Below are positions 5,814-8,149 of a stretch of 10,568 nucleotides of DNA, piece after piece. The stretch comes from an uncultured Deinococcales bacterium. GTDB lineage: Bacteria; Deinococcota; Deinococci; Deinococcales; JAAFIG01. The stretch lies in the NCBI GenBank assembly GCA_964247135.1, contig CAXTTL010000171.1, positions 1-10,568 of the forward strand. Reading direction: 5' to 3'. The position numbers and the translations under genes are program-made. Below the pieces are notes generated by a model. It was not told the origin of the DNA, did no database searches, and was given only the letters and a program-made list of their open reading frames with translations. Positions within the stretch are counted from its first letter, which is position 1. Each line of letters begins with the position of its first letter.

Positions 5814-6335
5814 GTGAAAACGGTGGTCAGTCAGCGTGGTTTGAAATGGTGGGCGAACATTGTCGCTCGAGTTATTCTATTGGGGTGGTTGATCGAAACC
5901 TCTTTTAATTTTGGAAAACTTATCATAATTAAATTACCAACCACAAAATCTTTTGAAATGCAAATTATAACAATTGTTTTTTTTCTCATGTGTTTTATCT
6001 GTATTTTTGTAGTTTTTGAAATTTTAAAACATTTTTTTCAATACACAATTATGGTATCAAAAGATGGAATATACGAAATTATGGGAAATGAGAAAACTTT
6101 TCACTCATTTGAGAATATCAATAAAATTAAAATGCACTTTCATTCGACAAAATACACGCAATGGAAGGAGCTTGAATTATTTTTGGTTAACCAAAAAGAC
6201 TCCGCTATACTTCAAACACGTAGGTTTGATAACACAAGAGAACTTAATCTGGTCATCATGGATCAATCCAGGGTTATCAACCCAGAAATTCAGATTGATA
6301 GTGCATGTCTTACAGCTTATCGGCATCACCCATAG
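5814..6335 (+). CDS. Hypothetical membrane protein (two N-terminal TM segments plus soluble domain), AT-rich
   Basis: A 173-codon ORF stays open in DNA whose sampled 60-nt lines are 18-30% GC. Two hydrophobic stretches. Start uncertain; no recognisable family. Confidence 0.6.
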   Translation: MKTVVSQRGLKWWANIVARVILLGWLIETSFNFGKLIIIKLPTTKSFEMQIITIVFFLMCFICIFVVFEILKHFFQYTIMVSKDGIYEIMGNEKTFHSFENINKIKMHFHSTKYTQWKELELFLVNQKDSAILQTRRFDNTRELNLVIMDQSRVINPEIQIDSACLTAYRHHP

Positions 6336-6449: not shown

Positions 6450-6479
6450 TTGACACGATTATGCACTTGCGCATACAAT
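6450..6479 (+). promoter_or_regulatory. Sigma70-type promoter for the mgtE leader
   Basis: TTGACA (6450-6455), 18-nt spacer, TACAAT (6474-6479). Predicted TSS near 6485-6487. Confidence 0.8.
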
Positions 6480-6482
6480 CAC

Positions 6483-6511
6483 GTTGTCTTGAACCTTGCG
6501 TTCAAGACAAC
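6483..6511. repeat. Perfect 12-bp inverted repeat at the predicted TSS
   Basis: GTTGTCTTGAAC-CTTGC-GTTCAAGACAAC. Confidence 0.85.
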
Positions 6512-6540: not shown

Positions 6541-6756
6541 AGGAGGTGGTTATGGAACCCATTCCCAGTTCAGGGTCAGTGCCGTTATCTTGCACTTCGG
6601 GTGTTCATGCCGCGCTCCAAACAAAATCTGTTTGAGTTCATCATGACTTCCTGACCTGAATTCGCTTCGGGCGCGGTATCGTGCTCCATTCCCTGAATGT
6701 TGTCACCAAATGTTCGGGCGTTGCTCTTTGCGGGCATCAGGAGGTGAAATCATGAT
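6541..6756 (+). promoter_or_regulatory. Structured cis-regulatory leader of mgtE with alternative anti-RBS / anti-anti-RBS pairings
   Basis: 6640-6654 is complementary to the mgtE SD and ATG (6737-6756). Alternatively 6651-6662 pairs with 6567-6579, and 6642-6646 pairs with 6605-6609. Confidence 0.65.
6552..6635 (+). CDS. Putative mgtE leader peptide, 27 aa (MEPIPSSGSVPLSCTSGVHAALQTKSV)
   Basis: Perfect SD AGGAGGT at 6541-6547, ATG 6552, TGA 6633-6635. Pro at codons 3, 5 and 11. Confidence 0.6.
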   Translation: MEPIPSSGSVPLSCTSGVHAALQTKSV

Positions 6757-8149
6757 TCTTGAAGGTACAACGCTACAGCCGCTCGAGTTGCTCGAGGTTT
6801 TAAAAGAGGGTCGGCGCGACGAGTTTAAAGGTTTGCTGCGAAGCCAGCCCGAAACCGTGGTGGACGCGGCGTTCGAGGATGCAACCCGTGACGAACGCTT
6901 GGAATTCTTGCGTTTGATGCCGGTCGAACGGGCGGCGAACACGTTCACGGATTTGTCGCTCGAGGATCAAAGCGATTTCTTGCCCGATCTGTCCAGCGAC
7001 CGCATTCGGGTCATGGGCGCGTTTTTTGGTCCGGACGAAATGGCAGATTTGCTGGGCGAACTCGAGTCGGACGCGGATGCCAGGGCGTATCTGATCTCGA
7101 GTTTGCCGCCGACCCTCGCCAAAAGTGCGCTCGAACTCGAGTTGTACCCCGACGATGACGCGGGCGGTATGATGACGCCAGAATTTGTGGCGGTGCGTGA
7201 GGGTTGGAGCGTCGGGCACGCGATTCAATTTTTGCGCCAAGCCGCAGACCACGCCGAGACGGTGCAGAATCTGTATTTGGTGAACACAGGCGGTCAATTG
7301 CGCGGCATCATTCCGCTTCAAGCGTTAATCACCGCACCCGCAATGGCAAAAGTCGAAGACTTGGCGCGGCTCGAGATTATTTTTGCCAGAACCGACACAG
7401 GTCAAGAAGAGGTTTCGCGCCTGATGCGCGATTACGATTTGGCGGTCATGCCAATTGTCGATGAATCTGGGGTTCTAAAAGGAATTGTCACGATTGACGA
7501 TGTGATTGACGTACTCGAGGAGGAAGCCACCGATGATATTTACAAGGGCGCGGCGATTCAGGGTGGCGAGTTCGAGTACCGAACCGCCAGTCCGTTTTTG
7601 CTGTGGCGCAAACGCATTGGCTGGTTGTTGATTTTGTTTGTGACCGAAAGTTTAACCGCAAATGTGATCGGGGCTTACGACGGACTGATTAAGGCTGCAC
7701 CGTTGCTGGCAGTTTATTTGCCCACTTTGATCGGGACTGGTGGCAATACAGGATCGCAATCGGCGACCTTGGTCATTCGGGCGATTGCGTTGGGTGAAAT
7801 TCGAGGGCGCGACGCCTGGCGGGTGATGTTCAAAGAACTTGGTGCTGGGTTATTGATTGGCGCGACGATTGGCATTGTGGCTTTTGCCCGAATTGTGTTG
7901 TTTCGCCGAAATCAGGGTTTGGGCTTGGCGCTCACGGCGGCAATTTCGATGTTTCTGATTGCCATTTTTGCCAACATCACTGGGGCGTTGCTGCCGATTT
8001 TGTTTAAGAAACTCAAAGTCGATCCCGCGTTAACCTCCAGTCCATTTTTGGCAACGGTCATGGATGCAACGGGCTTGTTGATCTATTTTGGGCTGGCACA
8101 ATTTTTGATTCATTTGGGCATCTATCAACTCGAGCCGATCAAACCATGA
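6752..8149 (+). CDS. mgtE: Magnesium transporter MgtE (N domain, CBS pair, 5-TM domain)
   Basis: AGGMMTPEFVAV, GIVTIDDVIDVLEEEATDDI, GTGGNTGSQ and DPALTSSPFLATVMDATGLLIY with the pore Asp. SD AGGAGGT at 6739-6745 supports ATG 6752. Confidence 0.96.
   Translation: MILEGTTLQPLELLEVLKEGRRDEFKGLLRSQPETVVDAAFEDATRDERLEFLRLMPVERAANTFTDLSLEDQSDFLPDLSSDRIRVMGAFFGPDEMADLLGELESDADARAYLISSLPPTLAKSALELELYPDDDAGGMMTPEFVAVREGWSVGHAIQFLRQAADHAETVQNLYLVNTGGQLRGIIPLQALITAPAMAKVEDLARLEIIFARTDTGQEEVSRLMRDYDLAVMPIVDESGVLKGIVTIDDVIDVLEEEATDDIYKGAAIQGGEFEYRTASPFLLWRKRIGWLLILFVTESLTANVIGAYDGLIKAAPLLAVYLPTLIGTGGNTGSQSATLVIRAIALGEIRGRDAWRVMFKELGAGLLIGATIGIVAFARIVLFRRNQGLGLALTAAISMFLIAIFANITGALLPILFKKLKVDPALTSSPFLATVMDATGLLIYFGLAQFLIHLGIYQLEPIKP

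Follow-up and report, generated by a model that had tools for sequence, protein, structure and literature searches.

A short upstream open reading frame in a Deinococcales mgtE leader as a candidate ribosome-operated Mg2+ attenuator

What controls the Mg2+ channel gene mgtE at a locus where a short open reading frame with a perfect Shine-Dalgarno (SD) sequence stands in the leader? Ribosome-based Mg2+ sensing has been shown experimentally for enterobacterial mgtA, mgtB and corA (PMC8092293, PMC11552253, bioRxiv 10.1101/2021.02.02.429294), and many mgtE genes are described as having no M-box riboswitch (PMC9276622). An earlier note on this DNA had read the upstream open reading frame (uORF) as an MgtL-like leader peptide. 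From folding models and comparison with known leaders, we consider it probable that mgtE is under a translational attenuator in this leader, operated by the ribosome, laid out like Salmonella mgtQ and responding to Mg2+.

The uORF and its setting

The window, i.e. the whole stretch of 10,568 nucleotides that was analysed, contains a gene that scores 350.7 bits against the mgtE model TIGR00400 (cut-off 232.75) and starts behind its own AGGAGGTG (Table 1). The perfect SD and the 27-codon uORF with proline at codons 3, 5 and 11 described in the earlier note were found in the sequence, and its leader of about 270 nt agrees with the approximately 266 nt between the predicted transcription start and the mgtE ATG, the promoter being near-consensus (TTGACA-18-TACAAT, 11/12 consensus matches). 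A GTG two codons 5' of the uORF ATG overlaps the SD and is implausible as a start. The uORF peptide matched no Pfam or NCBIfam model, its exact sequence was absent from the protein collection searched, and no Rfam family came up at E<1 for the window or reached its gathering score in any of 12 related loci. With one acidic residue in positions 2–7, the peptide is weaker than the EPDP motif. The genome encodes both efp and Rho. Perfect SDs alone are not rare, as 10 of the 104 AGGAGGT-N3-8-ATG sites in the genome open an ORF of 10–40 aa; ATG-GAR-CCN-NNN-CCN occurs four times, and the leader uORF is the only SD-led MEPxP. The uORF is judged to be above chance because of its conservation in the family, not because of the SD alone, and is very likely a translated regulatory element.

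Directly 5' of the leader lies an AT-rich ORF of 173 aa (5814–6335) with no family match above cut-off, which is probably a recent insertion, as the upstream neighbour varies between relatives. The CTCGAG repeats within the leader and ahead of it were discounted as a signal, this being the commonest hexamer of the genome (33,925 copies, 6.7 per kb); AGGCCG and CCGGCC have just 9 copies apiece, and this skew suggests a strong restriction-modification or repair bias.

Table 1. Features of the mgtE leader and gene, in window coordinates.
Feature	Position	Strand	Remarks
Sigma-70-type promoter	6450..6479	+	-35 and -10 hexamers, 18-nt spacer; pattern match; predicted start near 6486
5'-terminal hairpin of leader	6483..6511	+	12 bp; sequence unconserved
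uORF Shine-Dalgarno	6541..6547	+	AGGAGGT; SD-like in 16/16 family loci
Segment 1, uORF SD and start	6542..6559	+	partner is segment 2 or segment 3
Leader uORF	6552..6635	+	27 codons; ATG at 6552, TGA at 6633–6635
Codons 1–8, MEPIPSSG	6552..6575	+	23/24 nt invariant in 8/8 type-A leaders, three genera
AGT serine codon	6567–6569		inside the MEPIPSSG stretch
Segment a, codons 6–10	6568..6579	+	predicted outer ON helix with 6652–6661
Segment 2, codons 16–23, 'GVH' block	6599..6618	+	predicted OFF with segment 1, ON with segment 3
Segment 3, anti-SD and flanks	6640..6661	+	core 6646–6654
Three small hairpins in predicted OFF multiloop	6669..6736	+	6669–6686, 6692–6718, 6722–6736
Segment 4, mgtE SD and start codon	6737..6756	+	SD at 6739–6746
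mgtE, Mg2+ channel gene	6752..8149	+	465 aa; MgtE_N, CBS and MgtE domains; start backed by 16 family loci

Conservation of the leader in the family and across the phylum

The host's family comprises 19 genomes, 18 of which have an mgtE match; two matches lie at contig starts, leaving 16 loci from four genera, among which MgtE identity falls as low as 61%. The earlier note had proposed the uORF as a possible control of mgtE and made its conservation the point to check: an SD-led uORF of 22–33 codons is present in 16/16 genomes whose mgtE contig includes the upstream DNA, a promoter equivalent was recognized by pattern in 15/16, and a 17th leader (type B, see below) was found on a separate contig. 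A covariance model trained on 14 of the family leaders that it finds detected a single full copy in each of 17 of the 19 family genomes, at mgtE every time, and had no match in 42 genomes from four further families. Eight of the 16 leaders, from three genera, begin with MEPIPSSG (type A) and show almost no synonymous change in the first eight codons; the other eight, from two genera, carry (D/E)PEPLS further in and a G-V block after it (type B), and the codons for D, P, E and L vary synonymously. Six lengths (40–64 nt) separate the start from segment 2, in the same frame in 14/16 leaders, and five separate it from Pro-Leu, every one a multiple of 3. In one genus member, a single base inserted after codon 15 shifts the frame of the C-terminus, and the C-terminal uORF peptide is therefore dispensable.

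An mgtE match was found in 234 of the 364 genomes of the phylum (a tally that includes the unpublished G327, on which no other result depends), and upstream DNA was read for a sample of mgtE loci per family. Two further leader types emerged, which we label by inferred names as Thermus-like (genus g9) and Meiothermus-like (genus g13 and neighbours; type C). Among the 23 of 32 Thermus-like loci examined, 22 have a nearly leaderless uORF of 11–20 codons containing LP(S/P)S, the 23rd having lost both ATG and hairpin. Outside g9, the same family (f5; 22/36 examined) yielded 18 GTG-started uORFs with acidic residues first and then serines (type C), one degenerate leader and three loci without; family f4 (15/21 examined) has type C in two, and no common uORF was seen by eye in families f2 (30/119 examined) and f3 (2/8). 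Proline at codons 3 and 5, proposed earlier as a core across Deinococcota, did not hold up: MEPIP occurs in 8/16 family leaders and (D/E)PEPLS in the other eight, whereas Thermus-like leaders have LPSS and Meiothermus-like ones acidic residues followed by serines. In-frame length changes were found in all four leader types, whose uORFs span 11–33 aa with unrelated C-termini and no hydrophobic span.

Several observations stand beside this survey. The two degenerate leaders (L048:440-520 in G225 and L028 in G034) are both in genomes with two mgtE matches, as are the intact leaders of G213 and G236. One f2 locus (L029) has an SD-led 20-codon TTG uORF about 143 nt before mgtE, with an acidic-proline run first and an AGT inside, which is absent from the other f2 loci viewed; nine f2 loci (L084, L086–L088, L095–L097, L105 and L107) carry repeated GCAC(A/G)AGC-like motifs 5' of mgtE, possibly a protein-binding site. 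With the query used, mgtE matches were obtained in 8/125 genomes of the Deinococcus-like family f3 vs 68/68 of the Thermaceae-like family.

Alternative pairings and the modelled ribosome walk

Segment 3 can pair with the mgtE SD region (6737–6756), with segment 2 plus codons 6–10 (6568–6579), or with segment 1. Helix 1:2 was better than base shuffles in 13/14 family leaders (p = 0.003 at this locus) and better than synonymous recoding in 9/14, and in the alignment 82.5% of its cells pair vs 36–48% when slid; its covariation was not above shuffles (212/500). Three sub-structures folded better than shuffles (z = -2.6, -2.9 and -2.9) in windows picked afterwards. Taken alone, the anti-SD:SD duplex showed no excess over shuffles at this locus (p = 0.17), and just 6/23 loci gave p < 0.05, the best partner at several loci being other than segment 3. 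An inverted repeat (6607–6628/6658–6679) and a terminator-like element (6692–6718) were rejected, the former as unconserved and the latter as lacking a U tract.

In a modelled ribosome walk (27-nt mask, 37 °C, equilibrium folding, 3' footprints of 12, 15 and 18 nt), the probability of anti-SD:SD pairing at this locus was 0.67 in the ribosome-free leader, 0.00–0.22 with the P site at codons 1–7 and 0.80 at codon 8, where the codon-8 boundary rests on one assumed 12-nt 5' footprint; the pattern holds for all three 3' footprints, and the modelled ON window coincides with the invariant MEPIPSS. Past codon 12 the probability drops again via 1:3 pairing and the model reopens the SD at this locus, which would blur the OFF state unless a following ribosome occupies segment 1. 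Across the family leaders, equilibrium folding gave early SD release that was clear in 7/14, partial in 2/14 and absent in 5/14; with transcripts ending before the SD, early anti-SD capture was also seen in three of these five. The full-leader SD-opening cost, computed for 35 loci, gave no switch at this locus (7–10 kcal/mol throughout) nor in type A. Pairing bears on the peptide as well: the CCC-ATT-CCC codons are able to pair with the uORF's own SD (structures of locus L006), the uORF prolines may in part be a side effect of RNA pairing, as with mgtQ Pro4, the 'GVH' block is accounted for by pairing, and Glu2, invariant in 8/8 type-A leaders, has a GAA codon that also pairs in helix 1:2.

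We propose the following mechanism. Helices 1:2 and 3:4 would form the OFF state, and helix 2:3, reinforced by an outer helix from codons 6–10, the ON state. With the ribosome absent or past codon 7, the anti-SD would sit on the mgtE SD and close it; a ribosome on codons 1–7 (MEPIPSS) would block segment 1, so that the uORF body captures segment 3 and the mgtE SD is free. At low Mg2+, ribosomes would linger or repeatedly abort in MEPIPSS (Glu-Pro, Pro-Ser-Ser), leaving segment 2 unswept and mgtE translated; at high Mg2+ they would read to the end, freeing segment 3 at the stop codon and passing it to the SD, which would turn mgtE off. That the output is masking of the mgtE SD is likely, and we hold this with good confidence; that the signal is Mg2+ read by the ribosome is quite probable by analogy, Mg2+ being named as the signal because of the downstream gene mgtE and of precedent only.

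Folding of the other layouts gave related pictures. The SD of Thermus-like leaders vies with the stop-codon arm for one strand, and as the ribosome nears the stop the predicted SD-opening cost rises from 5.5–10.5 to 12.9–21.3 kcal/mol in 21/21 distinct leaders; the ribosome-free state was variable among three leaders of a further folding run. Two Thermus-like helices are 97% paired and nearly invariant, and an apparent covariation signal (7/500 shuffles) came from one misaligned row (L049) and was not counted. In type C, folded for 16 of the 20 leaders with four near-duplicates left out, the anti-SD is predicted to pair with the uORF's own RBS, and a ribosome at the start closes the mgtE SD in 15/16 leaders, a polarity opposite to the early release of type A. 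A simple early stall would be unfit for type C, for which abortion or poor loading would fit; that busy, complete translation means OFF would suit most leaders of all four layouts.

The feature common to all four leader types is an in-frame AGT serine codon rather than Pro3 and Pro5: it is present in 58/58 intact uORFs (8, 8, 22 and 20 by type, two degenerate leaders left out), often within Pro-Ser-Ser or Pro-Leu-Ser, and lies on or close to the modelled ON/OFF boundary in three of the types, namely type A, type B and Thermus-like. A motif that includes AGT served to locate the Thermus-like uORFs, with all 23 loci retained; choosing the first ATG without this motif gave the same frame in 21/22 leaders. 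Among serine codons sampled from two Thermaceae-like genomes, AGT makes up 3.3% and 2.8%; its share is 15% in the host genome and 32% in one type-B genome, and since it is rare in the Thermaceae-like genomes, its conservation is telling only there. Among these closely related species the neighbouring codons are equally constant (CCC 22/22, TCG 21/22). Pairing can account for the T of AGT in type A and part of type C; in Thermus-like leaders the pairing probability of AGT ranges from 0.00 to 0.94, and swapping it for AGC shifts the SD-opening cost by -1.6 to +2.1 kcal/mol in the ribosome-free state, the only informative one in this test as ribosome-bound states mask the codon. Tentatively, and with the balance of probability against it, Deinococcota might read Mg2+ through a ribosome step undescribed for MgtL, MgtQ and CorL, in which decoding of the wobble AGU serine codon, or passage of Pro-Ser-Ser or Pro-Leu-Ser, would become slow or abortive at low Mg2+.

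Comparison with known Mg2+ leaders and competing explanations

Among known systems, Salmonella mgtQ-mgtB is the better match. There, 1:2/3:4 versus 2:3 pairing governs how mgtB is translated, the acidic codons at positions 2 and 5 are required and Pro4 exerts its effect via pairing, as described in PMC8092293. In common with mgtQ, as far as it is laid out in the same source, the present leader has a uORF overlapping segment 1, helices 1:2 and 3:4 set against 2:3, a 3:4 helix that hides the transporter RBS, a predicted translational output, an acidic residue 2 and a predicted fall in expression when the start codon is lost; computationally, the 1:2/3:4 and 2:3 helices are mutually exclusive and a resident ribosome favours 2:3. 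Unlike mgtQ, with which it is compared by layout and not by sequence, it would control MgtE rather than the P-type ATPase MgtB, it stands in a 5' leader behind its own promoter rather than between mgtC and mgtB, and its family has uORFs of 22–33 codons that contain segment 2, together with an additional outer helix.

With MgtL the leader shares the M-E-P-x-P start (MEPDPT in MgtL) and the prediction that efficient translation represses a Mg2+ importer; N-terminal DE/P motifs, including MgtL EPDP, are described as causing translation abortion that is stronger at low Mg2+ (bioRxiv 10.1101/2021.02.02.429294). It has no EPDP, however, with Ile in place of Asp (EPIP), MEPxP is found in just half of the family, it precedes mgtE and not the P-type ATPase gene mgtA, and SD masking rather than Rho termination is the output predicted for it. 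DPEP or EPEP occurs internally in 8/16 sister leaders. The mgtA leader RF01056 had no match in the window or in the host genome (84% complete), with the E. coli control positive. The MgtL-like label of the earlier note therefore does not stand, failing on RF01056, on EPDP and on mgtA context, while its suggestion of convergence rather than MgtL homology is borne out by the missing RF01056 match and by MEPIP in just 8/16 family leaders. The RNA switch, which that note had missed, is closer to mgtQ (SD masking) than to MgtL (Rho termination), and was probably built independently of both Salmonella systems. The host also has an mgtA-type P-type ATPase gene (TIGR01524 over cut-off; G000:C54:493-3033) about 60 nt after another ORF, presumably pyruvate-kinase-like; no leader or uORF was seen at this gene, and mgtA-type genes were found in 3/19 family genomes.

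CorL of corA likewise is a uORF within alternative leader helices, with translation inverse to transporter expression and few acidic or proline residues being enough, and differs in being Rho-dependent and serving another transporter (PMC11552253); no such leader was found at the host genome's two corA copies. The M-box (ykoK) riboswitch RF00380 is also a cis element before mgtE (PMC9276622), yet its RNA binds Mg2+ directly, and, as the earlier note had supposed for this locus, it was not found: 0/41 genomes searched had a match, with B. subtilis and L. lactis controls positive. Thioalkalivibrio's SRC-65-1, called the 'mgtE motif', is another structured leader, with a stem that takes in the mgtE SD and start; compared by description, it is presented in the available part of PMC11109978 as a riboswitch candidate in Thioalkalivibrio only, a part that mentions no uORF. 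The present leader works like mgtQ, yet it is a member of neither MgtL, mgtQ nor M-box. No description of a Deinococcota mgtE uORF was found in the open literature, a search scope with most subscription journals outside it, and the motif list from 50 genomes in the supplement of PMC11109978, which lies outside the comparison, may bear on novelty.

The attenuator could be real and respond to something else, namely serine or proline tRNA charging, the general initiation rate or temperature, which we regard as unlikely. Serine codons are prominent, AGT is in frame in every intact uORF, and Salmonella mgtP is described as responding to tRNA-Pro (PMC8092293). Against this, no genome has more than one copy of the family leader, which stands before mgtE alone, and mgtL, mgtQ and corL are all linked to low-Mg2+ expression. 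Amino-acid attenuators, moreover, usually have runs of one residue ahead of the biosynthetic genes for that residue.

With a reading of Mg2+ by the ribosome retained as the preferred signal, the output might still be MgtL-like, uORF translation gating Rho-dependent termination in the 116-nt spacer between uORF and mgtE and SD pairing being secondary. The presence of Rho in the genome, the full-length SD-opening cost without a switch at this locus, and the reported action of the mgtA (MgtL) and corA (CorL) leaders through Rho (PMC11552253) speak for this, but the spacer is structured (z = -2.87), the stop-to-start gap is just 27–52 nt in 8/16 family leaders, and anti-SD segments follow the SD sequence in different genera. 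Folding favours SD masking as the predicted output, and Rho termination seems quite unlikely.

Very unlikely in our estimate is a riboswitch of undescribed kind, in which the RNA itself senses Mg2+ and segments that have to pair with SD-like sequence give rise to the uORF incidentally. Consistent with it are the near absence of synonymous change in the first eight codons of type A, the pairing of CCC-ATT-CCC and of the 'GVH' block, and the frameshifted member; it is contradicted by length changes that stay in frame in all four leader types, by synonymous variation in (D/E)PEPLS, and by leaders that vary about threefold in length, have no conserved tertiary-looking core and match no Rfam family. 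Action of the uORF peptide in trans on MgtE, in the manner of the MgtR/MgtU regulatory peptides (28–30 aa, Salmonella mgtCBRU operon), is highly improbable for a peptide of 11–33 aa with unrelated C-termini, one of them frameshifted, no hydrophobic span, and conserved parts that are N-terminal or explained by RNA pairing. A chance ORF within a constitutive leader, for which the 10 perfect-SD short ORFs in the genome might be cited, is scarcely credible given 16/16 conservation over four genera whose MgtE proteins are as little as 61% identical, with the frame kept.

If the attenuator reading is true, a conserved uORF switch ahead of mgtE in so distant a phylum, with four layouts in one order, would show the ribosome to be a general Mg2+ gauge. 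The Thermus-like version of 11–12 codons, a very clean predicted switch, would be a minimal system in which to ask which codons make translation Mg2+-sensitive, Thermus being a genetically tractable genus. It precedes the MgtE used as structural model: in one Thermus-like genome with an AGT leader, 135/140 MgtE residues (96%) are identical to PDB 2yvy/2zy9, so that the AGT reading is directly testable. 2ZY9 is the T. thermophilus MgtE channel (PMC9276622).

Metagenomes were scanned as well. This locus's protein gave no match, and the family alignment gave 80 distant MgtE loci (30–45% identity), in which the family RNA model had no match; a scan of genome contigs returned 16 more loci of the same family, taken as duplicates and not counted. 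Among the 70 distant loci with at least 200 nt upstream, 12 have an SD-led uORF, two of them Meiothermus-like. Pro-rich uORFs stand before MgtE relatives at loci L137 and L170, and loci L172 and L190 have 16-codon uORFs with Pro-Ser-Ser (AGC, not AGT) about 210 nt before a distant mgtE.
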